Positions 38,580 to 51,732 of a stretch of 64,000 bases of DNA are shown piece by piece (the stretch's first letter is position 1; the number at the start of each line of letters is the position of its first letter). Under the pieces are notes generated by a model, which was not told the DNA's origin, did not search any database, and saw only the letters and a program-made list of their open reading frames with translations. This DNA comes from an uncultured Bacilli bacterium. Lineage in GTDB: Bacteria > Bacillota_I > Bacilli_A > RF39 > UBA660. The position numbers and the translations under genes are program-made. The stretch spans positions 6,355-70,354 of the forward strand of contig CAJTKV010000001.1 in the NCBI GenBank assembly GCA_910577075.1, read 5' to 3'.

Positions 38580-40592
38580 CTATCTATTAGTTAATTTCAA
38601 ATGTTTATCTATTTCCTCTATAGAAGTATTAGAGCATGGGAATAGTTCATCTGCCATATCTCCCATTCGTTTTTCCGCCCCAGTAATAAATTCTTCCATA
38701 GAATAAAAATCTTCAATACCTTCACATAATTTTTTCGTTTTTAATGCTTTTGGATTTTTATCAACCTCAGAAGCAAGCAACGACCATCTTTGATAAGCTT
38801 CTCCATTTTTTTCTCTTCTTTGAGGACCTAAATATTTATCTAACCAAGCTATTTTTAAATCCGTATGTAACTTATTAAACCATAGTAATAAATCATAATT
38901 ACTCTTAGATAATTTATAATTTTCTTGATTTAAATTCTTCATTAGTTCTTTAACTTTTTTATATTGTGCATTATACCAAGTTGTCATATAAGTTCCATCA
39001 AAAAAACAATAGTCCTTACTCTTAGGTAAGACATTTCCATATTCTATAGTCCTCTCATAATATGCGGATCTCTTATCTTCAACATTTGGTAAATCTATTC
39101 CCCTTAAATAATTTTCAAGATAAGCAAGCATCTCAATGACATACATATCATCACTTGAGATTTTATAATCTTTATTCTTTTTATATAGTCTAAGTTCATT
39201 CTTAGCTATTTTTAACATCTCTTTATACCAATCACGCAAATATGTTCCATCTTTATATTTTTCATCTGGATCTTCTAAATATCCCGAATTGGAAATAATT
39301 CTATCACAATAAATATCTGTTTTATCTCTATTACTTAAATAAGCTGTTTGACAAATAGATTCAATATAATTATTTAAATCAGTTATATTACCACCAAATG
39401 AGACATTTTGTAGGCCAACTATACCGTTTCCTGTTTCTCCCTTTTTCTCATAATTATCTCGCAAATGTAAAAAATTCAAAGAACTGATTCTGGTAAGATT
39501 CCCCCCTAAATCCAATATTCTAACCGGCATCTTATTTCCCAAAGAACAACCTCTACCAAACTTTTGTAAAAAGTCACGATAGGCATTTGTTTTATTGGCA
39601 AAAATAATTTGCATTTCGCCATCTGTATGAAAGCCTTCTGTCATCTGTCTTATTGATAATAAAACTTTACTATTGCCATCTCTAAACTCATTATTTTTAA
39701 ATTCATTAATATTCTCTGAATTTTCCTTTTTTGGCAATCTACACGAAGTCTTATATATATCCAATGTTGGAAACTCTCTTCTTAATAATCTTTCCTTAGC
39801 TAACAAATCATTAAAATCTCGACAGTAAAACATTATTTTAGTTTGATGCAAATTCAAATATTTTTTTAATATATGAACTATACCTGCTTCTTTGTTTAAA
39901 TAATCAACTAATTGATCAATCTGCTCTTCACTGATATTTTCTCCTACTCGTTTTTTTAATATATCTATTGCTTCTTCACGAGTATTTCGCGATAGAACAA
40001 AAAATTCGTCATATATAGGTATCGAAAACAAGTCGTTTGCAAACGCTTCATCAAGAGAATAAAAAAATGAAACATTGCCATCGTATAAGACATTTGCCAT
40101 ATTGACTCTCTTTTTTAATTCTTCATCATTATCATCATTTACTATTTCAAAATCCCACTGCAAAATTGGGGTTGCCGATAATCCCAAGTACTTTCTTTCT
40201 CCATCGTCATTAAACATTTTGGAAATTGATTCATATCTCTTCTTTTTGGCAATGGCATGAAATTCATCACAGACAAACAAATCAAATGTAGGAACAATTC
40301 CCTTCTTTATCATTTCATGAAGTTGAGCATAAGTATAAAATTTTAAATCGGCAAAATCCTTATCCAAATCATAACCCATATTGGTTAAATGTTCTTGTAT
40401 TTGTTCTAAATGGAGCTGTCTAGGTGCTGCAAAAACAATAGCTTTATCTGCATAATTCAACATAGCTGAAGTAGCAATTGCTGATTTTCCTATTCCCATT
40501 GTCGCGATAACGCATGAACGTTTCTTAAACTCTAAATCATTTAAAACATTTTCTATTGCTTCTTTAATATGCGGATAATCAAAAATATTCAT
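38580..40592 (-). CDS. SF2 helicase with C-terminal helicase-associated (HA) repeats
   Basis: ATMGIGKS (Walker A), CDEFHA (II), GLSATP (III), QKFGRGCS (VI). The C-terminal third has repeated DGTY..WY and W..L motifs. Confidence 0.85.
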   Translation of the reverse strand: MNIFDYPHIKEAIENVLNDLEFKKRSCVIATMGIGKSAIATSAMLNYADKAIVFAAPRQLHLEQIQEHLTNMGYDLDKDFADLKFYTYAQLHEMIKKGIVPTFDLFVCDEFHAIAKKKRYESISKMFNDDGERKYLGLSATPILQWDFEIVNDDNDEELKKRVNMANVLYDGNVSFFYSLDEAFANDLFSIPIYDEFFVLSRNTREEAIDILKKRVGENISEEQIDQLVDYLNKEAGIVHILKKYLNLHQTKIMFYCRDFNDLLAKERLLRREFPTLDIYKTSCRLPKKENSENINEFKNNEFRDGNSKVLLSIRQMTEGFHTDGEMQIIFANKTNAYRDFLQKFGRGCSLGNKMPVRILDLGGNLTRISSLNFLHLRDNYEKKGETGNGIVGLQNVSFGGNITDLNNYIESICQTAYLSNRDKTDIYCDRIISNSGYLEDPDEKYKDGTYLRDWYKEMLKIAKNELRLYKKNKDYKISSDDMYVIEMLAYLENYLRGIDLPNVEDKRSAYYERTIEYGNVLPKSKDYCFFDGTYMTTWYNAQYKKVKELMKNLNQENYKLSKSNYDLLLWFNKLHTDLKIAWLDKYLGPQRREKNGEAYQRWSLLASEVDKNPKALKTKKLCEGIEDFYSMEEFITGAEKRMGDMADELFPCSNTSIEEIDKHLKLTNR

Positions 40593-40677
40593 AAAGTCAT
40601 GCCCCCTTAATTAATCCTATATTTTAAGGTTTCTATTCTCTAAAGTCAATAGTTCATAACAATATATTTTAATCTAA

Positions 40678-40707
40678 ACAAATAAAACACCAACTATTAC
40701 ATTGGTG
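40678..40707 (-). terminator. Rho-independent terminator after the NUDIX gene
   Basis: caccaa-ctattaca-ttggtg hairpin followed by TTTTATTTG on the minus strand. Lies in the 129-bp gap before the helicase gene. Confidence 0.5.
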
Positions 40708-40721
40708 CTTTCATTATATCA

Positions 40722-41129
40722 TCATATTAATTTTAAATCCTCTAGCATTAGTTTATGATCATAGGCTAGTTCCATTTCTCTTATTTCCTCTGGCTTAAAC
40801 CATTTAACTTCATCGCATTCGCTTACTGCTGAAGGAGTCCCACTTATAATATCACAAAAATGCGGAAGGCAAATCATTGTTTTAGTTGGATGTCTTCCGA
40901 TTTTATCATAATATCTTCCCGTGAATCGGATATTTCCTATCTCGACACCAATTTCCTCCATAGCTTCTCTTTTTAAAGCATTTTCGATTTCTTCGCCCCA
41001 TTCAACTTTACCAGCTATTAATCCCCATAATTGTTTATAGGCACCTCTTGTACGATGCATTAAAAGTATTTCACCCTTATCATTTCTTATAATTGCATCG
41101 ACACCTATATATGGATGGTCTGTTTGCAT
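40722..41129 (-). CDS. NUDIX hydrolase
   Basis: Nudix box GKVEWGEEIENALKREAMEEIGVE. Starts 10 nt after the upstream gene. Confidence 0.85.
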   Translation of the reverse strand: MQTDHPYIGVDAIIRNDKGEILLMHRTRGAYKQLWGLIAGKVEWGEEIENALKREAMEEIGVEIGNIRFTGRYYDKIGRHPTKTMICLPHFCDIISGTPSAVSECDEVKWFKPEEIREMELAYDHKLMLEDLKLI

Positions 41130-41138
41130 AATATCCCT

Positions 41139-42230
41139 CTATTTCCTTTTTTCTTGTATTTCTCTCGTCAAATCATGCATTATTGTACAATATTCACAAA
41201 GAAGACATCCTTCATTTTTAAATATATCTAAATCATTTTCTAACATTTTTATAGCCGCATATTCACTACATTCATAAAAAGTTTCTGTATCACATTCTTC
41301 TTTGCCTGCAAACTCAGAATTTTCTGAAGGTCTGAACGCCAATATACATGGATGTATTCCATTCATCGTCAATTTATCAATTCCCTTTTTGATTGTATCA
41401 ACTGGTGCAATACCACATATTAATGTACTGCCAACTTTGTTGCCACCTAGTAATTCATTTGCATAAATTCCTCTTTTAATATATTCATCTATACCAATTG
41501 CGCCCTTACCTGGACAAATCTCTCGTCTTAACTTTTCGTCATATATCTCAATATTAAAGCCAAATGAAGTTGCTCCAACATCAATCAATTTCTTTATTTC
41601 TTCTCTAGTTGGCGGAACCATTTCCACCCAAATGGGAATGTCTTTGGATTTTTTTCTGATTTTATCTATTATATTTATAAAATTTGCTGTAGATCGTGGA
41701 AGCGGTAAATATGTACCTCCTCCAAGACAAACATGATATTTCCTTTCATCCTTGGCAAAATCGACTACTTCGGCAATCTCATCAGGAGTAGACTCATTAA
41801 CTCTTTCTCCGCATCCACAAAACTTACACTTCAAATTGCGCTTGTTATAATCACATCCTGTATAAGTCATATGGAGATACTTCTCCCCTTCATCGATAAA
41901 TATCTCCGATGTCAATCGATTTGTTGAAGTCTTTTTCTCATACCACTTTGGCGGATCAATAAAAGCAACATCACAGATAATATTGTCATTAATATCAGAT
42001 AATGAAAGTTTATCTAAACTGCCAACTAACTTGTAACCGACATTTTCCGTGTTTTCATATAGCACATTTGCTAAAACAGATACTTTACTACCTAATTTGA
42101 TCATTATCCCAAAATATCTTCCCTGTTTATGCATTTCACTAGGATTTTGGTGCTCATATATCTGTTCCGCCAAATCATTAGCTAATATTCCATGGCAAAT
42201 TATATCTGCCTTTACTCTTATTAAATCCAT
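41139..42230 (-). CDS. Radical-SAM-like enzyme with non-canonical Cys motif
   Basis: TGCDYNKRNLKCKFCGCG (CX8CX2CXC, not CX3CX2C), LGGGTYLP (GGE-like), GATSFGFNIEIYD, STLICGIAP. C-terminal CLLCEYC. About 110-aa unknown N-terminal domain. Confidence 0.55.
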   Translation of the reverse strand: MDLIRVKADIICHGILANDLAEQIYEHQNPSEMHKQGRYFGIMIKLGSKVSVLANVLYENTENVGYKLVGSLDKLSLSDINDNIICDVAFIDPPKWYEKKTSTNRLTSEIFIDEGEKYLHMTYTGCDYNKRNLKCKFCGCGERVNESTPDEIAEVVDFAKDERKYHVCLGGGTYLPLPRSTANFINIIDKIRKKSKDIPIWVEMVPPTREEIKKLIDVGATSFGFNIEIYDEKLRREICPGKGAIGIDEYIKRGIYANELLGGNKVGSTLICGIAPVDTIKKGIDKLTMNGIHPCILAFRPSENSEFAGKEECDTETFYECSEYAAIKMLENDLDIFKNEGCLLCEYCTIMHDLTREIQEKRK

Positions 42231-42267
42231 TAAAACACCTCTTAAATAGATTATATCATAAATAAAA

Positions 42268-43701
42268 CTATTTACTATTATTATCCAAAAATTTATCTAA
42301 ATACTCTTTCCAATCCTCGGCATTTTCTTCTTCAAACAAGTGATAAAGAATTGCTACAATTATTTCATGTCTATTGCTGGCCTCTTGCATTCCTGCCTTA
42401 GTCATCATCAAATCCTTAAGACACAAAAGTTTATTAAAACAATGTCTAACTACGCTATCATCGCATAATTTGTAATTACTAGCTTCTATCCTATCATCGG
42501 GAAAAGAATTTCTATCAAAAAATGGCTTACCATTACTCTTTTGATAATCAAGACTTCTTAAAATTCCCGTAACTCCTATGGCATCACACATGTAAGCATC
42601 ACTTACAATCATTCCTTCGATGCTCTTAGGTCTAATACCCATCAAAGACTTTTTATAACCAATGCTTTTAATTGAATCTAAAACTATATTCTGACTATCT
42701 TCATCTACTTTAGCTTTAGTCATAATATCCTTGGCATTTTGCAAGTTACTAGCATGTTCTTCGCCAAATATTTTATAATCATCTACTTCATGCAAAAGGG
42801 CAATTAATGAGGGAATAAACACATCGACATTTTCCGATTTGGCAAATTTTAAAGTTAAATCATATACGCGATTAACATGTTCCATACCGTGTCCTGATTT
42901 ATCCTTCTTTAATATTTTTAAAACTTCATCTTTAACTTTTGATATTATTTGATTTCTCTCTTTATAATAGTTAGTAACATCACTACTTCTCCTAAAGACC
43001 TTAACTTTATCACTTAAAAAACCAATAATTTCATCTTCATCTCTACATGCATTATAAAATAATTCGTTTTTATTGGAAAAATGTACTGTTTCTGAAGATT
43101 TTTCTTCCGTAAATAGCGAACCTACTACGACAGTTTCTATATTCTTCTTATCAATTAAGTCTTTATATAAATTCATGTCTTTAATCGTTATATTCTCAAT
43201 AACTGGTTTAATATACAAAACAACAGGAATATTAGAATTAAGCAAATCAAAAGTTTTAAATCTTCTCTCCAAATTCTCTGTTGCTTTCTCATATTTTTCA
43301 TATTCACTTATAGTGCTATTGCTGACAAATATTATCAACTGTCCATAATAACTGATAAGGGGGATTAATTCTTTAACATCATCATAAGATACATATCTTT
43401 TTGTTGATATCTGTACCTGATTACCTTTTGCTAGAAAATATCTTGCTACCTCTAGTGTATCTTTTTTATTTGCCTCATCAAAACACTCAGAAAAACACCC
43501 TAGAGTAATTAAAGTATTCTTATCATACTTAAAATTAAATGTATCAAGCATTTCAAGTACTTCAATACTTGTTTTTCTCTCCATCTTATTCATTCCCATT
43601 TTAGATAAATAACAAAACTTACATTTACTTTTACATCCCAAACATGTATTTATAAATATTCTTTTTTTATCTCTAGCAAAAATATAGCCATTGTCTATCA
43701 T
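42268..43701 (-). CDS. Fusion: SPL-like radical SAM domain + YpgQ/YedJ-type HD phosphohydrolase domain
   Basis: N-terminus CLGCKSKCKFC contains canonical CX3CX2C. C-terminal half SGHGMEHVNRVYDLTLKFA..LIALLHEVDDYK matches the GHxxxHxxRV...ALLHDvxDxK pattern. Confidence 0.8.
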   Translation of the reverse strand: MIDNGYIFARDKKRIFINTCLGCKSKCKFCYLSKMGMNKMERKTSIEVLEMLDTFNFKYDKNTLITLGCFSECFDEANKKDTLEVARYFLAKGNQVQISTKRYVSYDDVKELIPLISYYGQLIIFVSNSTISEYEKYEKATENLERRFKTFDLLNSNIPVVLYIKPVIENITIKDMNLYKDLIDKKNIETVVVGSLFTEEKSSETVHFSNKNELFYNACRDEDEIIGFLSDKVKVFRRSSDVTNYYKERNQIISKVKDEVLKILKKDKSGHGMEHVNRVYDLTLKFAKSENVDVFIPSLIALLHEVDDYKIFGEEHASNLQNAKDIMTKAKVDEDSQNIVLDSIKSIGYKKSLMGIRPKSIEGMIVSDAYMCDAIGVTGILRSLDYQKSNGKPFFDRNSFPDDRIEASNYKLCDDSVVRHCFNKLLCLKDLMMTKAGMQEASNRHEIIVAILYHLFEEENAEDWKEYLDKFLDNNSK

Positions 43702-43796
43702 AAAAATTTTTCCTTCTTATACATATTTATTAAATTATATCATAATAATTTCATCCTGTAAGAATAGTCTCTTCATCAAAAATAAGAAGACAACAA

Positions 43797-43825
43797 TTGA
43801 CATTATGTGATGTTTTTAATATAAT
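43797..43825 (+). promoter_or_regulatory. Consensus sigma-70/SigA promoter for the NAT-like gene
   Basis: TTGACA (43797-43802), exact 17-nt spacer, TATAAT (43820-43825). AAAGGAA RBS before ATG 43855. Confidence 0.65.
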
Positions 43826-43854
43826 GTTATTAACATACAGAAAGGAACACTTAT

Positions 43855-44868
43855 ATGAAGATTACTACCAATAACTCTGATAAAGGAAATAGTTTTACAA
43901 GTATAGCAAGAGGTAGATATACTTCCATAAAAAAGAAAAAAATCACTTCTTTCATCGACTATAATTCTCTTGATTTAAATCTTATTTCTAAGCTTTTAAA
44001 TCAAGTTATTCAAAATTACACATATAGCACATTTGATCTTATTAAACTAATTAAAGAAAATTTTAATGGCAATATTAAAAAAAGCATTCAATCCGTTGAT
44101 GATTACTCAAAAGTTCGCTTCAATTGTTATTATGCTACTAAACTTTTAAAAGAAAAACTAAAAAATAAAGGGATTGATACCAAATATGTTTCTTACAAGT
44201 CAATTGGTTTTTCTTCTCCATCTGGTGACGAACTTATCAAAGAGGCACATATTTCATTAGTTATACCTACCATCCACAATGAAAGAATCTATTATCTTGT
44301 TTTAGATCCCGGCTATCGCATTCCAGAACCCATGGGTTTTTATAAATCCAGCAAAATTACTAATCTAAAAATTGATCATGATGATATCTCAATTCAAAAA
44401 ACAAGTAGCAACATCTATCCTTATTGCATGAAAATGAAGGGATATAATAGATATTCTATCGATGAAAACAGTTATTCTTGTGAAGAATATTTTAATTGTG
44501 ATTATGAGACGTTGAATCCTGAAGAAATTCTTTTTCCCATCTCCTATACAATTCTAAATGGCTATCGAATAATTAATTATAATGAAGACAAACAAAAATC
44601 GGCTATGATAAAAGTTATGATTTTAGAAGAATATCTCGAATGCTATGACTGCAATCAAAGTATTTCTTTTGCATTTTCTGAGTTAAAAAATATGTCTAAA
44701 GACCAACTATATAACCTACTAACGCCCTTCTGTGATAAATTAAAACAAGACGTTCAAGAATTAGTAGAAATAATTTATTTTATATTGAATAATAATAGCC
44801 AATTTATTAGTGAAATTATGAATAAACCTGTTTTAAAAGAATTTAAAAAGAATATTACTTATCATTAA
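43855..44868 (+). CDS. Hypothetical protein with arylamine-N-acetyltransferase/transglutaminase-like Cys-His-Asp pattern (tentative)
   Basis: VRFNCYYATKLL (Cys), EAHISLVIPT (His), YYLVLDPGYRI (Asp), in the order and spacing of the NAT catalytic triad. Confidence 0.45.
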   Translation: MKITTNNSDKGNSFTSIARGRYTSIKKKKITSFIDYNSLDLNLISKLLNQVIQNYTYSTFDLIKLIKENFNGNIKKSIQSVDDYSKVRFNCYYATKLLKEKLKNKGIDTKYVSYKSIGFSSPSGDELIKEAHISLVIPTIHNERIYYLVLDPGYRIPEPMGFYKSSKITNLKIDHDDISIQKTSSNIYPYCMKMKGYNRYSIDENSYSCEEYFNCDYETLNPEEILFPISYTILNGYRIINYNEDKQKSAMIKVMILEEYLECYDCNQSISFAFSELKNMSKDQLYNLLTPFCDKLKQDVQELVEIIYFILNNNSQFISEIMNKPVLKEFKKNITYH

Positions 44869-45673
44869 ATCGTGTAGAGACAGATATTTCGAAAGGAACC
44901 ATAGATCCGTCCTCCACAACATTGATTTCAACTCCAAAATGCCCCATTCCATCTTTTAATAATTCTTCTTGTTCCATATAAAGAGGAAATACAACATCAT
45001 TTATTAACTTTCTGAATACCTTTTTTTCTATGCCTTTATAACAGTTTGGCATAGTTTTTATTATCTCTTCTTTTTTATCTGGATAGGCATCAAATAAAAA
45101 ATCTCGTCTTATTTTCAAAGTTTCTAAATATTGAATTTGATTTATCTCACCTGTTTTATATTTTTGAATAGACGAATCATCCATAAATGGAACATCATCC
45201 CATGGAATAATCCAGCTCTCATGACTTCCTCTTCCTCTAGACAATAAGCCACAACCAAAACTAGGGCCCACATAATCTATATATAAGAAATGTCCTATCT
45301 TTACATCTAGTCCAAATCCTCCTTCAGTATGAATTCTTTCATTTGTGCCCGGCTTTAAATCTTCCAAGATTATTACAGCATCTGGCACTAGTTTTTTCAC
45401 ATCTCGAATATATTGATTAACTCTATCTCTATGAAACGTTTGTCCCTCTGGCAGTTTTCCTTCAACTCCTCTAGGGGAATCACATCTAACTGTCATAGTG
45501 TTAACGGGAAATTCATTCTTTACCTTTTCCCACTCTTCTTCATTATCAATGACATACATCTTATTTAACGGACTTAAATGCGGTAAATATTTATCAACTA
45601 ACGCTATACCTTTGCATTTTCTGTAAGTATTTATAAGTGCCATATGTTCTTTTTTAGATATATCTAAAATCAT
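44855..45673 (-). CDS. Hypothetical protein (272 aa)
   Basis: Clean ORF. Its 3' end overlaps the convergent NAT-like gene by 14 nt. No confident motif. Confidence 0.6.
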   Translation of the reverse strand: MILDISKKEHMALINTYRKCKGIALVDKYLPHLSPLNKMYVIDNEEEWEKVKNEFPVNTMTVRCDSPRGVEGKLPEGQTFHRDRVNQYIRDVKKLVPDAVIILEDLKPGTNERIHTEGGFGLDVKIGHFLYIDYVGPSFGCGLLSRGRGSHESWIIPWDDVPFMDDSSIQKYKTGEINQIQYLETLKIRRDFLFDAYPDKKEEIIKTMPNCYKGIEKKVFRKLINDVVFPLYMEQEELLKDGMGHFGVEINVVEDGSMVPFEISVSTRFNDK

Positions 45674-45699
45674 TTATACATTCCTCTTTTTTATTATAA

Positions 45700-46254
45700 T
45701 TAATTTAATATATGACTTATAGTTCTATCAATCTGATTAATAATTTCTTCGTCGTCTTTAGTAGGGAGGGTATTTGTATTTAAAGAATATATATAATCCT
45801 TCTGCAAATCGAATTCAGCATTTAACTTTTTAAATGTTTTTACTGATATATCAATTGCATTATCTGGAGACCCATTGCCGCCACCAACAAGTATTAGTAT
45901 TCCCTTCTTTTTCTTCATATTATTAGAAATATTTAAAAAATACTTATTACTCCATATATAATTTAATCTTGTAAATACTGAAAACAATGGTGGAGTTACA
46001 TACGAAATATATATTGGAGATGCAATAATTAAAACGTCATAGTCATCCTTCAATATTACAGCCATATTATCCTTTATAGAACATCCTTCATTTTTCCAAC
46101 AATATCTACAATCTATACACGGTTTAATATCATCTTTATAAGCATTTATTTCATCAAACTCCGTATCACTTGGAAATCTCTCTTTAACTTTATTAATAAC
46201 AAATGCTGTATCTCCATTATTATGGGGAGAACCGTTCAAAATAAGCGCTTTCAC
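45700..46254 (-). CDS. Iron-sulfur flavoprotein (Isf-type flavodoxin/NADPH-FMN reductase family)
   Basis: MKALILNGSPHNNGDT FMN-binding start. CIDCRYCWKNEGC (CX2CX2CX5C) compact cluster motif. Confidence 0.8.
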   Translation of the reverse strand: MKALILNGSPHNNGDTAFVINKVKERFPSDTEFDEINAYKDDIKPCIDCRYCWKNEGCSIKDNMAVILKDDYDVLIIASPIYISYVTPPLFSVFTRLNYIWSNKYFLNISNNMKKKKGILILVGGGNGSPDNAIDISVKTFKKLNAEFDLQKDYIYSLNTNTLPTKDDEEIINQIDRTISHILN

Positions 46255-46363
46255 ATTATCACTTCCATGATTATTATAACATTTCCTACCCTCAAAGTTC
46301 TACCTTATTTTCTTTAACAATTATTTCTGTTTTTATTAAATTGCCTAACTTTTTGAATTTTAA

Positions 46364-46504
46364 AAGGATGTGCACATAATTTTTGTTTACATCCTTTATT
46401 TAGCGCATTAAGCTATACTTTTAAATTATTTGCAAAATGTCAATAAAACTTTTATCTTTCTTATTTACGGCAGCAATTCTTATATTTCTTACCACTTCCA
46501 CAAA
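46364..46504 (-). repeat. Degenerate copy 3 of the secA 3' end (SEC-C coding tail + spacer + terminator hairpin)
   Basis: 46462-46504 tatttacggcagcaattcttatatttcttaccacttccacaaa matches 49232-49274 at 37/43. It encodes only ..LCGSGKKYKNCCRK* behind TAA TAG stops. Hairpin aaggatgt..acatcctt (46364-46396) resembles the secA terminator. Confidence 0.75.
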
Positions 46505-46605
46505 GCCTTTTCTATTAGCGTTTGTGTGAGATCTTGGCAACACTCCACAGCAATCGACAAACCTAGCAGATTGTATATAAAAAATGATTATTCTTATAAA
46601 AACTA

Positions 46606-47565
46606 TCACAATTTTTTACCATCTTTTGAGGTAACTACTTTAGTTGCTATTAACACATCATTTTTCAATTCATCTAATTCAGGATATCTTACTAATTGTT
46701 CTAGAAAATAAACTATATCATATATTCCTAATCTTTCATATAGATTTGGAGTATTAACTAATTCAGGATAATACTTATTAACATATGACATTATATTTGA
46801 ATAATCATTAGCATCTGTATATTTTTCTGTTTCTTCACTAGCAAATTTCCATGGCTTTCTTATCATTCTATAAAGTATATCTAACTCGAAATCTCTTGGT
46901 GCATACATTGATCTTTCAAAATCAATTATTTTAATCTTTCCATTATCCACAAATATATTATCAAAGTGAAAATCATTATGAACTAAGACAAATTCATCAG
47001 AATCAAGATATTCATCAAAATCAGAGTAGGCTTGTTCTAATAATTTTTGTTCTTCGTCATTAAAGATATTTAATTCTTTAGCTTCTTCATATAAAGGATT
47101 AAATTCTTTCTTCATATATTCTGACCAATTATATTTCTCCCCTTTAATGCTGTGCATCTGTTTCATAGCATCACATAGTTGTCTTATTATATCTTCTCTT
47201 TGTTCTTCAGAATAAGTATGCCACACATTAAATAAAGAAACACCATTTACTTTTTCAAGTATTTCATAAAAATATGGAAGATCTTTTTTATCTGTACTTG
47301 AATAATATAACTTAGGTATTAGAGTATTACCTTTATTGGAATTATAAAAAGTGATTTCTTTTTTAAACTCTTCTTCATTATCCAAATCAGTACATACTTT
47401 AACTATATAAGAATCATTTACTTTATATAAAGTATTTGTGAATCCAACATTTATTTTTTCGCACCTTGGATTTGTACCAAATACTGATGTATTGGTTCTA
47501 ACTATTAAATCTATTATTTTGTCCAACTTTATCACTTCCTTCTCAATTATATCATACACCCTCAT
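46606..47565 (-). CDS. APH/choline-kinase-like phosphotransferase
   Basis: LVHNDFHFDNIFV (HxDxxxxN catalytic loop), KIIDFERS (DFE metal-binding). Confidence 0.8.
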   Translation of the reverse strand: MRVYDIIEKEVIKLDKIIDLIVRTNTSVFGTNPRCEKINVGFTNTLYKVNDSYIVKVCTDLDNEEEFKKEITFYNSNKGNTLIPKLYYSSTDKKDLPYFYEILEKVNGVSLFNVWHTYSEEQREDIIRQLCDAMKQMHSIKGEKYNWSEYMKKEFNPLYEEAKELNIFNDEEQKLLEQAYSDFDEYLDSDEFVLVHNDFHFDNIFVDNGKIKIIDFERSMYAPRDFELDILYRMIRKPWKFASEETEKYTDANDYSNIMSYVNKYYPELVNTPNLYERLGIYDIVYFLEQLVRYPELDELKNDVLIATKVVTSKDGKKL

Positions 47566-47622
47566 GTTTATCAGTGAATTAGGGAAAAGACATGCGTATA
47601 ATTACCTAAATATTATAATCAT

Positions 47623-47656
47623 AGAAAAACCCGCAATATCTTTATTTATGTGGGTT
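47623..47656 (-). terminator. Rho-independent terminator after SEC-C copy 2
   Basis: aacccgca-(13 nt)-tgtgggtt hairpin with one mismatch, followed by T5 on the minus strand. Confidence 0.5.
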
Positions 47657-47664
47657 CTCGATCT

Positions 47665-47707
47665 TATTTACCACAACAATTTTTATATTTCTTACCGCTT
47701 CCACAAG
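47665..47707 (-). repeat. Copy 2 of the secA 3' end; forms a 19-codon mini-ORF (47664..47723)
   Basis: tatttaccacaacaatttttatatttcttaccgcttccacaag matches 49232-49274 at 39/43. With ATG 47723 it reads MRVRSSCGSGKKYKNCCGK*. No clear RBS. Confidence 0.75.
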
Positions 47708-47906
47708 AACTTCGTACTCTCATATTATCAATACTTACAATATTTATAATATTATTGATTTTTTTAGGTAATTCTTATATTATCTGCATTATTAGTATCA
47801 TTTTTATTATAAATATTTCTCTACTGTGGACAAATTGAGGACATTGTCCACAATTGTTCACTGATATAGGTATATCATATTTTAACAATTTATAATAATG
47901 TTCCAT

Positions 47907-48932
47907 TTACTTATTTTCTATTTGTTTTGTTTCACTTAACAATCTATCAAAATCAGATACATAATTATTGTCTTGAATAACTTTGTACCTTTCATACTCA
48001 CTTTCGGCTTTTTCCTTTGCCTGTTTGTGTGATATTTTACCTTTTCCCTCTAAAACATCATAATGAAATACTCTTAATGCATTTTCCACTTCATTCTTCC
48101 AGTCATTCATATACATCGCAATATTTCTTTCGGCATTATTTTCGGCAATATCTAAAAATAAGTTGACTAAATTATTCAAATTCTTAATTTCTTTTTCATC
48201 TAAATAGTTTTTAGCAATTATAACATCTGATTTCATTATTTTCCCATCAGGAGATTTCTCCCACGTCTTAAGACCCATATTATCTTTTTTGGAATCTGCT
48301 CTTTCATAAACAATTTCAGCAGCAGTCTGACCAGTTATAGCAAAGTGGAATTTATTTTGAACCGTTTGATAAAATGTTATAGCTATATCACTATCCTTAT
48401 CGTAATCAATTGAACATTCAGCAAATATATCGGTAATTTTTTGATAAAACATTCTTTCACTTGTACGAATTAATTTAATTCTTTCAAGCAATCTTTTAAA
48501 ATACTCTTGATCAGACTTTCTTGCTTTCATAAATCGTTCATCATTTAAAGCAAACCCTTGAACCATGTAATCTTTAATTATCTTATTTGCCCAAGTTCTA
48601 AATTTGATTGCTTTTTTAGAATTAACTCTAAATCCAATAGAAATAATCATATCAAGATTGTAGTAAGGGTAAACCCTTTTTACATTTCGATTTCCTTCCT
48701 TTTGAACTTGTGCAATTTTTGCACAAGTTGAAGTTTCTTCTAGTTCTTCGTCTTTATATATATTATTGATATGTCTAACAATCCCACTTCTATCAATGCT
48801 AAACAGAGTTGATAAGGCTTCTGTATTTAACCAAACATCTTCGTTTTCTAATAATACTTCCACTTTAGTATTACCATCTTCGTCATTATAAAATAAAATG
48901 TTTTTTTCATTTCCAATTAGTTTATCATTCAT
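47907..48932 (-). CDS. RhuM-family virulence/DNA-binding protein
   Basis: Start moved to MNDKLIG (AAGAAGGTG RBS). VEVLLENEDVWLNTEALSTLF..YYNLDMIISIGFRVNSKKAIKFRTWAN is the RhuM signature. Confidence 0.8.
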   Translation of the reverse strand: MNDKLIGNEKNILFYNDEDGNTKVEVLLENEDVWLNTEALSTLFSIDRSGIVRHINNIYKDEELEETSTCAKIAQVQKEGNRNVKRVYPYYNLDMIISIGFRVNSKKAIKFRTWANKIIKDYMVQGFALNDERFMKARKSDQEYFKRLLERIKLIRTSERMFYQKITDIFAECSIDYDKDSDIAITFYQTVQNKFHFAITGQTAAEIVYERADSKKDNMGLKTWEKSPDGKIMKSDVIIAKNYLDEKEIKNLNNLVNLFLDIAENNAERNIAMYMNDWKNEVENALRVFHYDVLEGKGKISHKQAKEKAESEYERYKVIQDNNYVSDFDRLLSETKQIENK

Positions 48933-49103
48933 TATTGCACCTTCTTTAATAATTATTCTTAAAGTAATCAACTAATAATATTATGTTATTATATAATTCT
49001 TCTGTTCTTAGCATTTCCTGTAATTCATATCTATCATATTTTTGATTAAAAAATATTCAATATTTACTGCCATAATTATTTCAACTCGACATTCAACAAA
49101 AAA

Positions 49104-49274
49104 GATGTCAACAAATTTATTTTTGCTGACATCCCTTAATTTCAATGAATTTTGTCCACATTTTATTCAATCGGTTGACAAACAACAAATTTGTTACCTT
49201 TTAAAAATTTAACTTTTCCATTATTTCATACTATTTACCACAGCAGTTTTTATATTTCTTACCACTTCCGCAAG
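49104..49274 (-). repeat. Copy 1 (functional): secA SEC-C coding tail, spacer and secA terminator
   Basis: 49232-49274 encodes ..CGSGKKYKNCCGK*. Terminator hairpin gatgtca-(16 nt)-tgacatc at 49104-49133 is followed by T6 on the minus strand. Confidence 0.8.
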
Positions 49275-51732
49275 GACATGGATCATTTCTACCAACCTTA
49301 TTTTCTTTCTTAATAGGTTCCTTCTTAGCTTTTTGCTTTCCATCATCAGCTTTGCCTTCCATTGGCTTAGCTGTAAAGTTTTGTTTGATTTCCATTTTAA
49401 GTAAGAATGTTGCAATTGAAGCATCGATATTATCTTGCATTCTTTCAAACATCTCATAACCCTCTAAGGCATATGCTTGAAGTGGATTATTTTGTCCATA
49501 TCCACGTAATCCAATACCTTCTCTTAAGTTATCCATATCAGAAATATGTTTTACCCAAGCTTCATCAATTACACGTAATGAAATGTGTTTTTCAAAGTCT
49601 CTAACGATATCCTCAGGAACGATAGCAATCTTTTCTTCGTAGTCTTCAATTACTCTCTCACTGATAATATTAGCTACTTCATCTTCTGTTAATCCACTTA
49701 ATTCTTCAAGTTTAAGCTTATCAGTTTTAAGAAGATTATGATTAACGTTATCCATAATTGAATTTAAATCATCATCTGTTAGATATCCCTCTGGTTCAAT
49801 ATGTGAATCTATTAAGACATCGATATGGTCATGAATAATATCCAAAATGATGTTATGAATATCTTCAGAATCTAATATTTCATTTCTTCTTTCATAGATA
49901 ATCTTTCTTTGCTCTGAAACAATATTATCATAATCCAGTAAGTTCTTACGCATATCATAGTTGTTTCCTTCAACCTTCTTTTGAGCTGATTCAACTGAAC
50001 GAGTAAACATCTTACTTCTTACTTGTTCCATCTCATCTAAACCTAAAGATTGAACCATACCCTTAATCTTATCAGCTCCAAAGCGATGCATTAGTTCATC
50101 TTCAAAAGAGATAAAGAATTGTGAATATCCTGGATCTCCTTGACGACCAGCACGTCCTCTAAGCTGATTATCAATACGACGCGATTCATGTCTCTCAGTA
50201 CCAATAACACATAGACCACCTAATTCGGCTACACCTTCGCCTAATTTGATATCGGTACCACGACCAGCCATATTAGTTGCAATAGTAACTGCACCTTTTT
50301 CACCAGCCTTGGCAATAATTTCTGCCTCTCTAGCATGATTCTTAGCATTTAATACTTCATGTTTAATATGTTCTTTAGTTAACATCTTTGATAATTTTTC
50401 ATTTGATTCAACACTTATCGTACCAACCAAAATCGGTTGACCTGTTTCATGAACTTCTTTAATGAATTCTACAATAGCCCTATACTTGCCATTAATTGTA
50501 GCATACATTAAATCGCTCATATCCTCTCTTATACAAGGCTTATTTGTAGGTATTTGAATAACATACATGTTATAAATATCTCTAAATTCTTCCTCTTCTG
50601 TCTTTGCTGTACCTGTCATACCTGATATTTTAGCGTACATACGGAATAAATTTTGGAAAGTTATTGTCGCCATCGTACGAGTCTCTTCGTTAATTGGAAC
50701 TCCTTCTTTAGCTTCAATTGCTTGATGTAATCCATCAGAGAATTGTCTTCCTTCCATCAAACGACCTGTAAATTGGTCTACTATAACGACCTTTTGTTCA
50801 CCATCGACAACATAGTCGACATCTAAACTCATTCCATAATTAGCTTTTAACGCCTGATTAATATGATGAACTAGTGCTGTATTATCTGAATCATATAAAT
50901 TTTTTAATTTGAAATACTTTTCAATTTTCTTAGATCCCTCTTCGGTTAAGATAACACTCTTAGTCTTAGCATCAACAGAATAATCATCTTCTTCAGTCAA
51001 AGATTTAACTGCTCTATCAGCTTCAATATAGAGATTAGCTGAATTGACCTTACCACCGCTTATAATCAATGGTGTTCTTGCCTCATCGATTAAGATTGAG
51101 TCTACTTCATCTAGAATAACATAATTAAGTTTTCTTTGAACGCGATCCTCTGCTCTAACAACCATATTATCTCTTAAGTAGTCAAAACCGATTTCATTAT
51201 TAGTAGAATAAGTTACATCACAATTATAAACTTCCCTTTTTTGTTCAGGATTCAATTCTCTTAAATTGATTCCTACACTTATTCCCAAGAATTCAAATAT
51301 AGGTCCCATCCATTTGGCATTACGATCTGTTAAGTATTCATTTACTGTTACAACATGAACACCTTTACCAGTCAAGGCATTTAAATAAGCTGGCAATACA
51401 GTTGTCAATGTCTTACCTTCACCAGTTTTTAATTCTGCTAAGTTACCAAAATGTAATGCTAAACCACCAAGTATTTGTACATAATAAGGCTTTTCGCCTA
51501 TCATACGGAAAGCCGCTTCTCTTGCTGTTGCAAATGCCTTAACTATAACTTCTGTATCATCAATAGTTTTGCCATTTTCTAGCATTCCCTTTAACTTATC
51601 AGTCATCCCTGCTAATTCTTCATCGCTCATCTTTGAATATTCATCATCTAAGGCAACGATTTTATCAGCAATACCTCTAAATCTTTTTAATTCTTTATAT
51701 TCAGTATCTATTAAACTTTTTAAAAATCCCAT
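49231..51732 (-). CDS. secA: Preprotein translocase ATPase SecA
   Basis: 833 aa. AELKTGEGKTL Walker A, ILDEVDSILIDEARTPLIISG, GRAGRQGDPG, C-terminal zinc finger CPCGSGKKYKNCCGK. Confidence 0.97.
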   Translation of the reverse strand: MGFLKSLIDTEYKELKRFRGIADKIVALDDEYSKMSDEELAGMTDKLKGMLENGKTIDDTEVIVKAFATAREAAFRMIGEKPYYVQILGGLALHFGNLAELKTGEGKTLTTVLPAYLNALTGKGVHVVTVNEYLTDRNAKWMGPIFEFLGISVGINLRELNPEQKREVYNCDVTYSTNNEIGFDYLRDNMVVRAEDRVQRKLNYVILDEVDSILIDEARTPLIISGGKVNSANLYIEADRAVKSLTEEDDYSVDAKTKSVILTEEGSKKIEKYFKLKNLYDSDNTALVHHINQALKANYGMSLDVDYVVDGEQKVVIVDQFTGRLMEGRQFSDGLHQAIEAKEGVPINEETRTMATITFQNLFRMYAKISGMTGTAKTEEEEFRDIYNMYVIQIPTNKPCIREDMSDLMYATINGKYRAIVEFIKEVHETGQPILVGTISVESNEKLSKMLTKEHIKHEVLNAKNHAREAEIIAKAGEKGAVTIATNMAGRGTDIKLGEGVAELGGLCVIGTERHESRRIDNQLRGRAGRQGDPGYSQFFISFEDELMHRFGADKIKGMVQSLGLDEMEQVRSKMFTRSVESAQKKVEGNNYDMRKNLLDYDNIVSEQRKIIYERRNEILDSEDIHNIILDIIHDHIDVLIDSHIEPEGYLTDDDLNSIMDNVNHNLLKTDKLKLEELSGLTEDEVANIISERVIEDYEEKIAIVPEDIVRDFEKHISLRVIDEAWVKHISDMDNLREGIGLRGYGQNNPLQAYALEGYEMFERMQDNIDASIATFLLKMEIKQNFTAKPMEGKADDGKQKAKKEPIKKENKVGRNDPCPCGSGKKYKNCCGK

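Follow-up and report, generated by a model that had tools for sequence, protein, structure and literature searches.

The present work is concerned with a 64,000-nucleotide (nt) stretch of DNA from an uncultured Bacilli bacterium of the mouse gut (contig CAJTKV010000001.1 of assembly GCA_910577075.1, positions 6,355 to 70,354), which we refer to as "the window", and with the 3′ end of the secA gene that it carries. The last 13 codons of secA and its stop codon, which we refer to as "the tail", are repeated twice downstream of the gene, with a rhuM gene located between the first and the second copy and a kinase gene located between the second and the third. We estimate at roughly 85% the probability that the 3′ end of secA serves as the bacterial attachment site (attB) of at least two families of lambda-type tyrosine integrases, and that the window holds two cassettes of this system that have no integrase of their own. 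A first-pass annotation of the window, made from the sequence alone, had proposed serial insertion at this point; site-specific insertion at the secA 3′ end is supported by the tail arrays that occur across the family, by the integrases and prophages that are located between tails, and by the arms that are conserved beside the tails.

For the comparison with relatives, SecA matches have been collected in 40 relatives and their downstream DNA has been fetched, while a family-wide scan for the tail has covered 201 genomes of the same family, one per genus. Genomes are denoted by G numbers and loci by L numbers.

Three copies of the secA tail

The G+C content of the window is about 30%, and the genes around the secA tails are almost all located on the minus strand, as are secA, its tails, the arms and cargo genes of the two cassettes, and the native terminator, whose coordinates are given below. 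The putative integration target, secA (49231-51732, 833 residues), is found in csp-hpf-secA synteny; an identical product carries the Pfam SecA domains and SEC-C, the protein ends in ...CPCGSGKKYKNCCGK*, and the reading frame is open through to its stop codon. The tail encodes the peptide CGSGKKYKNCC[G/R]K, followed by a stop codon, and occurs in the same orientation at 49231-49272 (tail 1, CGSGKKYKNCCGK and TAG, the present working end of secA), at 47664-47705 (tail 2, CGSGKKYKNCCGK and TAA, a displaced secA end) and at 46461-46502 (tail 3, CGSGKKYKNCCRK and TAA, also displaced). A repeat search recovers the copies as a single three-copy direct repeat family (49222-49273, 47655-47706 and 46452-46503), in the same register as the first-pass annotation; the degenerate back-translation of the tail has 3 matches in the 64 kb, where 0 are expected, all of them being the known copies; and a six-frame scan of the 2.04-Mb assembly finds the tail peptide at no other place. 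The three direct copies that had been reported are therefore real, and the identities that had been given for the 43-mer (39/43 and 37/43) are exact by hand count.

The likeness among the copies is limited to the 13 codons and the stop, beginning at the second cysteine of the CxC pair, and the differences between them are synonymous or concern the stop codon (TAG/TAA), with the exception of one change (GGT to CGT) that replaces glycine with arginine in copy 3. A terminator-like hairpin follows each of the copies, at 49100-49137 after copy 1 (-18.9 kcal/mol, z -5.1), at approximately 47624-47659 after copy 2 (-11 kcal/mol, z -2.4) and at 46363-46397 after copy 3 (-11.9 kcal/mol, z -3.85); the first-pass annotation had already ascribed a terminator to copy 2. 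With as many as 8 mismatches allowed, the window has no further tail, the region from 36 to 46.4 kb included, and thus the array spans positions 46461-49272. The proposal that the secA tail marks the edge of an accessory block at 36.3-49.2 kb has to be corrected, as the array stops at copy 3 (46461) and nothing ties the DNA at 36.3-46.4 kb to it.

The flank that follows copy 3, including its hairpin, resembles the flank of the distal tail in the relative G014, the two being roughly 85% alike over some 80 nt (alignment, judged by eye). By this flank orthology, copy 3 corresponds to the original chromosomal end of secA, and the hairpin at 46363-46397 to its native terminator, located in the B′ flank at the distal end of the array.

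The arms of the two cassettes

The DNA between the cargo genes and the tails resembles the attachment-site (att) arms of integrase-bearing elements, for which we distinguish two types: T1 words (TTGTYCNCA-like) accompany integrases of the kind found in G014 and G003, while T2 words (TAGATAC or TAGATAAG doublets) accompany phage integrases of the kind found in G015, with T2 arms being present in 5/5 such contigs of the IMG/VR database.

The cargo of the first cassette is rhuM (47907-48932, 341 residues from its ATG), which had been correctly placed between copies 1 and 2; it matches PF13310 (E 3e-102) and is called as a 341-residue gene in public contigs. In PADLOC, the protein falls into the candidate defence family PDC-S05 (E 1e-135), and it can be regarded as a candidate single-gene phage-defence protein. 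Several rhuM paralogues are found in relatives, with three in G006.

The left arm of the rhuM cassette (48933-49230, T1 type) can be aligned with those of integrase-bearing T1 elements; it contains degenerate direct words (49173-49193), the inverted word TGTGGACAA (49152-49160) and the terminator hairpin at 49100-49137, it has 79% identity, over 298 nt, with the DNA that follows secA in the relative G017, and it has the word TTGTCCAC in common with the left arm of the G003 element. The right arm (47706-47906), of the kind seen in T1 attR sites, contains, in the sense of secA, the inverted TGTGGACAA (47844-47852) and a doublet formed by ATGTCCTCA (47836-47844) and TTGTCCACA (47825-47833), followed by ATAATAYT-type repeats; integrase-bearing elements in G014, G003 and G160 have right arms with which it aligns for some 165 nt, and TTGTCCACA is also the word of the G003 element. 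This 9-mer occurs 3 times in the window, as against 0.28 expected occurrences, with all of them in the two arms of the rhuM cassette. The first-pass annotation had seen a 9-mer on both sides of rhuM, which is correct, and which the shared T1 arm word explains; its coordinate on the secA side was one base off (the word lies at 49152-49160), and the inverted third copy at 47825-47833 had been missed. The rhuM unit shows signs of wear, namely left direct words that read TTGTTGTT and TTGTCAAC against TTGTCCAC, and a deletion of about 14 nt in the right arm, but by alignment and word content it carries the left and the right att arms of one integrase family.

The cargo of the second cassette is an APH-family kinase (46606-47565, 319 residues, PF01636, E 1e-24), located between copies 2 and 3 as had been described. 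Its identity as an APH(3′) resistance gene has been ruled out, with a score of 34 bits for the NCBIfam APH_3p model against a cutoff of 205, and the kinase should not be labelled a resistance gene. Tail 2 is part of this cassette; together with its flank it is 79% identical over 95 nt to the secA tail and downstream flank of G006. Both arms of the cassette are decayed and of T2 type. The left arm (47566-47663), which aligns with the left arms that this kinase cassette has in L033 and L034, with that of G003 and with attL sites of prophages, has a weakened hairpin (the one that follows copy 2) and retains the block tttaggtaatt, while its TAGATAC word doublet is deleted. The right arm (46503-46605), which aligns with its counterparts in prophage L093 and in G222 and G228 cassettes, has a mutated word doublet (ataatcattttttatataca) and an internal deletion of about 45 nt. 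A stretch near position 46540, between the kinase gene and copy 3 (ATTGCTGTGG), had been considered as a vestigial fourth tail and was rejected, as it aligns within the T2 right arm. By these alignments, the kinase cassette has the decayed arms of a second, phage-type integrase family with the word TAGATAC, and the two cassettes of the window stem from two different integrase families.

The conservation of the arms extends beyond the window: window copy 2 and the displaced tails of elements in G014, G016 and G025 are all preceded by about 160 nt of conserved DNA. In a comparison of 37 cassettes, the left and the right arm of one cassette have on average 4.9 GC-containing 8-mers in common, as against 1.08 for arms from different genomes and 0.29 for arms that face each other across a tail. 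Words that match at both ends are found in the rhuM unit, whereas in the kinase unit the arms are recognisable and the words are lost.

The kinase unit is also found outside this species. Kinase copies that are 82-86% identical occur in secA arrays of other genera, directly after a tail in L033 and L034, and in the order secA, rhuM (45% identical), kinase in L035. The SecA proteins of L034 and L035 are only 61-66% identical to the SecA of the window, and the much closer likeness of the kinase points to a horizontal transfer of the cassette between genera. L033 and L034, which belong to two genera, have one identical 42-nt tail ahead of the kinase, and in a third genus (G003) this is the tail of secA itself. 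Kinase homologues at 76% identity or less are mostly located elsewhere in their genomes, and the nearest species (G020, with a SecA that is 98% identical) has no kinase and no close rhuM in an assembly that is only 84% complete.

Tail arrays, integrases and prophages in relatives

In the family-wide scan, the tail is present in 154/201 genomes, and 57/201 have from 2 to 7 tails (counted from the scan table); among the matches listed, the tails on one contig are always on the same strand. The fetched arrays, from about 20 relatives, have up to 8 tails, and every array whose start is covered opens at a full-length secA (about 830 residues); each tail ends in a stop codon, the cargo open reading frames (ORFs) run nearly all in the direction of secA, and direct repeats of the target end are found at the boundaries, with secA kept intact. 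A relaxed DNA scan finds extra direct tails downstream of secA in G003, G014, G016 and G025 (in the latter in another order), and G001 has a degenerate tail after a rhuM homologue; none of the extra tails in these five genomes has the CPC prefix. The content just after secA varies in nearly every species of the genus; the cargo variation that had been predicted for this site is thus seen between species, but not within the species of the window, where all 21 of 21 full-length contigs are alike.

The array with the most tails, at L019 (G053:C27:24000-42000), has 8 secA tails within 14 kb, mostly in one-gene units, with T1 and T2 arms interleaved. In G016 (L012 869-2509), the sole cargo of a T1 cassette between two tails is a complete second methionyl-tRNA synthetase (546 residues); this ORF had been considered as a serine recombinase, which was rejected. 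Carried by a mobile unit, an accessory methionyl-tRNA synthetase might confer resistance or immunity to an inhibitor of this enzyme. Many contigs of metagenome-assembled genomes of the family stop within about 100 nt of a secA tail (G020:C23, G019:C2, G011:C4, G046, G175, G235 and others), which indicates that the repeated tails break short-read assemblies and that the arrays are under-counted.

The first-pass annotation had suggested that integrases be sought between secA tails in other genomes, and they are found in G014, G003, G160 and G228, as well as in prophages. In G014, the element that extends from secA to the second tail encodes a tyrosine integrase of 440 residues with the domains Arm-DNA-bind_4 (PF14657), SAM_3 and Phage_integrase, followed by Fic, a protein of 1067 residues and then the tail. 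Intact homologues of this integrase (40-57% identity) directly follow a tail in G003, G160 and G228, while the copies in G113, G084, G134, G091 and, additionally, G160 are split or truncated. A second type of integrase (373 residues) adjoins secA in G015, in inverted orientation; integrases of this type (99% and 59% identical) are encoded by IMG/VR prophage contigs of 35 and 40 kb, which have two flanking tails and T2 arms. In four IMG/VR viral contigs the tail is detached from secA and located beside an integrase of the G003/G014 family, an arrangement that looks like a phage attachment site (attP). In deposited phage genomes, the best integrase match is about 31% identical, and no named phage is tied to the secA site. 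Many other IMG/VR viral contigs (loci L083-L137) encode proteins of 100-200 residues or longer that end in a SEC-C tail (CGSGKKYKxCCGK); these SEC-C-tailed phage proteins are genuine and unrelated to att sites. In G160:C1 (L023-L025), the first 20 kb after secA encode an integrase, ParA, ParB, a surface protein of 866 residues, a sortase, a protein of 2367 residues, DUF3848 and a DUF3991-Toprim primase, and end in a truncated second integrase, by which the element looks like an integrative and conjugative element (ICE).

We have considered whether the extra tails are independent small genes for free SEC-C zinc-knuckle peptides (e.g. 47664-47723), selected for secretion or for ribosome binding, an explanation to which we give almost no credence. 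Copy 2 does have an in-frame ATG as well as a stop, being part of a 19-codon ORF, but the ATG (47723) appears to be there by chance, with no Shine-Dalgarno sequence visible ahead of it; copy 3 is without a start and is closed upstream by two stop codons located three codons before the tail. In relatives, roughly two out of three displaced tails lack an in-frame start before the upstream stop, the upstream open frames being mostly 1-24 codons long, and the features of a free-standing SEC-C gene (a conserved start, a ribosome-binding site and an open frame in homologous copies) are not found; what is conserved at the DNA level runs into the non-coding arms and not into a leader or ribosome-binding site. 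That small SEC-C ORFs might be conserved genes, which had been named as a finding that would speak against integration, is thus not the case. The peptide is conserved while its synonymous sites vary, as would be expected of a selected gene, with a diversity in displaced tails of 0.47 at third codon positions as against 0.08-0.10 at first and second positions; however, the same pattern is found in the tails that are attached to secA, and it is to be expected if the displaced tails evolved while serving secA.

A local duplication of the secA end by unequal crossing-over or slippage, in which no site-specific recombinase takes part and the intervening genes are ordinary neighbours, would agree with a window that has no recombinase and with an array that is invariant within the species. 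We nevertheless consider it highly improbable, as the copies differ at synonymous sites and have mutually unrelated flanks, the flanks are homologous to att arms that other genera carry in integrase-bearing elements and prophages, the same kinase unit is located behind secA tails in genomes of distant SecA, and the arrays always begin at exactly the same codon.

Probable ownership of the tails, crossover and order of events

The tails provide an indication of which unit they belong to. The arginine variant of the tail (GGA CGC AAG...) is followed by a T2 left arm in 10/10 cases, whatever is located upstream, as against 12/54 for the other tails (Fisher p = 4e-6), and the 42-nt tail common to L033, L034 and G003 is of this variant; the identity of the tails has no global correlation with the k-mer similarity of the upstream or the downstream flank (rho ~0). 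In two prophages and the G003 element, the perfect identity between attL and attR is limited to 15-18 nt (CCWTGTGGNNNNGG...) at the 5′ edge of the tail. From this arrangement we infer that the crossover lies within the 15-18-nt block, that a tail moves together with the unit that follows it, and that an incoming element would swap the tail of secA for its own. Tail 1 would then have come with the rhuM cassette, as the core and P′ side of its attL.

In the mechanism that we propose, the core of attB (approximately CCWTGTGGNNNNGG) would be located at the start of the last 13 codons of secA, and the integrases would reach this family of small-genome gut Bacilli as genes of its temperate phages and ICE-like elements. 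The attP of every element would hold its own copy of the secA tail; insertion would place this copy onto secA, leaving SecA intact, and would shove the old tail to the far end of the element, so that repeated insertion would build a co-oriented stack of units, each consisting of a tail, a left arm, cargo and a right arm. In the window, the T2 kinase unit would have been inserted first, displacing the native tail (copy 3), which is still located beside the native terminator; the T1 rhuM unit would then have been inserted at secA, displacing the tail of the kinase unit (copy 2). Both units, now without an integrase, would behave as ordinary chromosomal genes. The order of the events is a probable reconstruction, read from the arrangement of tails and arms; a past mobilisation in trans would agree, indirectly, with the presence of the kinase unit in arrays of other genera.

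For copy 3 and the DNA beyond it, the comparison with G014 (L014 6558-7266) provides a further observation: in G014, the distal tail and native terminator directly precede fragments that are homologous to the helicase of the window (670 residues, 38580-40592), while in the window about 6 kb are located at this place (40600-46360), with genes for an FMN reductase, two unknown proteins, two radical-SAM proteins and a NUDIX protein. These 6 kb form a second variable segment, which has no att marks.

State of the array within the species

The array stretch is found near-verbatim in many mouse-gut runs from 2014 to 2025, and the gene order is the same in 21/21 full-length contigs that encode an identical SecA, one more contig ending in rhuM. 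In Logan contigs the array is also unchanged, with assembly breaks at tails 2 and 3; a joint of 46401 to 49046 in these contigs, with 22 nt on one side, has been discounted as spurious. One mouse-gut run (X19) has a 315-bp in-frame deletion within the kinase gene (window positions 47100-47416) on a contig of normal depth, which suggests that selection on the kinase is relaxed in some strains.

Several observations weigh against our reading of the locus. No empty site, circle junction or cargo variant is found in the 22 contigs with an identical SecA, and no empty site or rearranged form in the Logan contigs of eight mouse-gut runs, although contigs drop or hide rare forms, so that this absence carries little weight. 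No integrase of either family is found in the genome of the window (91.6% complete), where the best matches are 24-32% identical. A rhuM homologue in G006 (80% nt identity) is located inside a larger island without a second tail, and the minimal rhuM unit may have originated either by deletion from a larger element or by capture. Lastly, the presumed core is not the same in tail 1 as in tail 2 (TGC/TGT and AGT/AGC), which indicates that the att sites are old and perhaps no longer recombinogenic.

The window itself has no integrase, either between the tails or elsewhere, as had been noted; since integrases are present in the related elements, the units of the window can be described as non-autonomous derivatives. 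It is conceivable that the rhuM unit, and perhaps the kinase unit as well, is still alive as a cis-mobilisable cassette that incoming cognate phages or ICEs excise and move: both rhuM arms are retained, with copies of their words and AT-rich repeats, integrase-less units with complete arms are common in relatives, and earlier transfers of the kinase unit between genera are evident. We consider present mobility unlikely, however, given the degenerate left words and the right-arm deletion of the rhuM unit, the loss of the word doublets from the kinase unit, the core differences between the tails and the lack of any variant arrangement in the 22 contigs or the eight runs. Since the array is invariant and neither an excision product nor a cognate integrase is found, we read both cassettes as fixed fossils in this species, of which the rhuM unit is the better preserved.

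Relation to known systems and significance

In Streptococcus thermophilus, cis-mobilisable elements (CIMEs) and the elements ICESt1 and ICESt3 accrete site-specifically at the 3′ end of fda. The secA arrays resemble this system in that a tyrosine integrase targets the 3′ end of a housekeeping gene and the element re-supplies the gene end, and in that att-flanked, integrase-less elements occur in tandem with autonomous elements or replace them. By the criteria used for CIMEs, each unit of the window consists of one cargo gene and of arms that are homologous to those of integrase-bearing elements or prophages, and has no genes for recombination or transfer. The secA arrays differ from the fda CIMEs in their target, which is the SEC-C tail of secA, in having up to 8 att sites and mostly units of 1-3 genes, and in that one target serves at least two integrase families, whose arm words differ.

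The integrases of the relatives share with lambda Int and Tn916 Int an arm-binding N-terminal domain (PF14657), followed by SAM-like and catalytic domains, and the attachment sites resemble those of the lambda type in the short, element-specific words that are repeated in both arms and in the 15-18-nt identity block at the crossover; unlike lambda-type sites, the putative attP holds a 42-nt coding mimic of the target end. Composite islands of SCCmec and pseudo-SCC elements (staphylococcal cassette chromosome, SCC) are found in staphylococci at the 3′ end of rlmH (orfX), where large serine recombinases (Ccr) are at work. Here the likeness lies in the tandem cassettes at the 3′ end of a conserved gene, some of them without a recombinase, that are separated by direct repeats of that end; the secA system differs in its target and in the use of tyrosine integrases of the phage and ICE type. 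With integrons, the secA arrays share the co-oriented arrangement of mainly single-gene, integrase-less cassettes at one chromosomal site, but the head of the array is secA itself, with no IntI, attI or Pc in the window. The boundaries are formed not by attC sites, which are imperfect palindromes that recombine as folded single strands, but by the 42-nt coding mimic and the double-strand arm words, the adjacent hairpins being ordinary terminators with a U-run; each unit comes with a terminator and presumably a promoter of its own, unlike integron cassettes.

The logic of the system, by analogy, would be that of lambda-type integration at the 3′ end of a gene, combined with tandem accretion and with integrase-less derivatives. 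In the literature that we have searched, no publication was found that describes secA as an att site, and the SEC-C tail of secA as a target, its sharing by at least two integrase families and the frequency and length of the arrays of tiny cassettes appear to be new.

According to our reading, phages, ICE-like elements and integrase-less cassettes would have a common att site in the end of an essential, universally conserved gene, the zinc-finger tail of SecA. This would explain the orphan SEC-C fragments that are otherwise annotated as pseudogenes or mini-ORFs, as well as the frequent breaks at secA in metagenomic contigs, and it would show at which single, predictable place uncultured gut Bacilli gather accessory genes and candidate defence genes. 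As the attP must encode a working protein tail, selection at the protein level would act on a recombination site. In the genome of the window, two genes can be recognised as cargo that was acquired horizontally long ago, and the place where secA originally ended can be located. Beyond this, we tentatively raise the possibility, which we regard as rather doubtful, that the family runs an integron-like platform for gene capture that is built from phage and ICE parts, in which each unit would carry a miniature attP, composed of the right arm, the secA-tail mimic and the left arm, and integrases of passing phages or ICEs would cut out, exchange and re-insert units of one to three genes in trans at the secA end. 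If this is so, the secA locus would serve as a common stock from which defence and accessory genes are shuffled, and the rhuM and kinase genes of the window would be two of its deposits.

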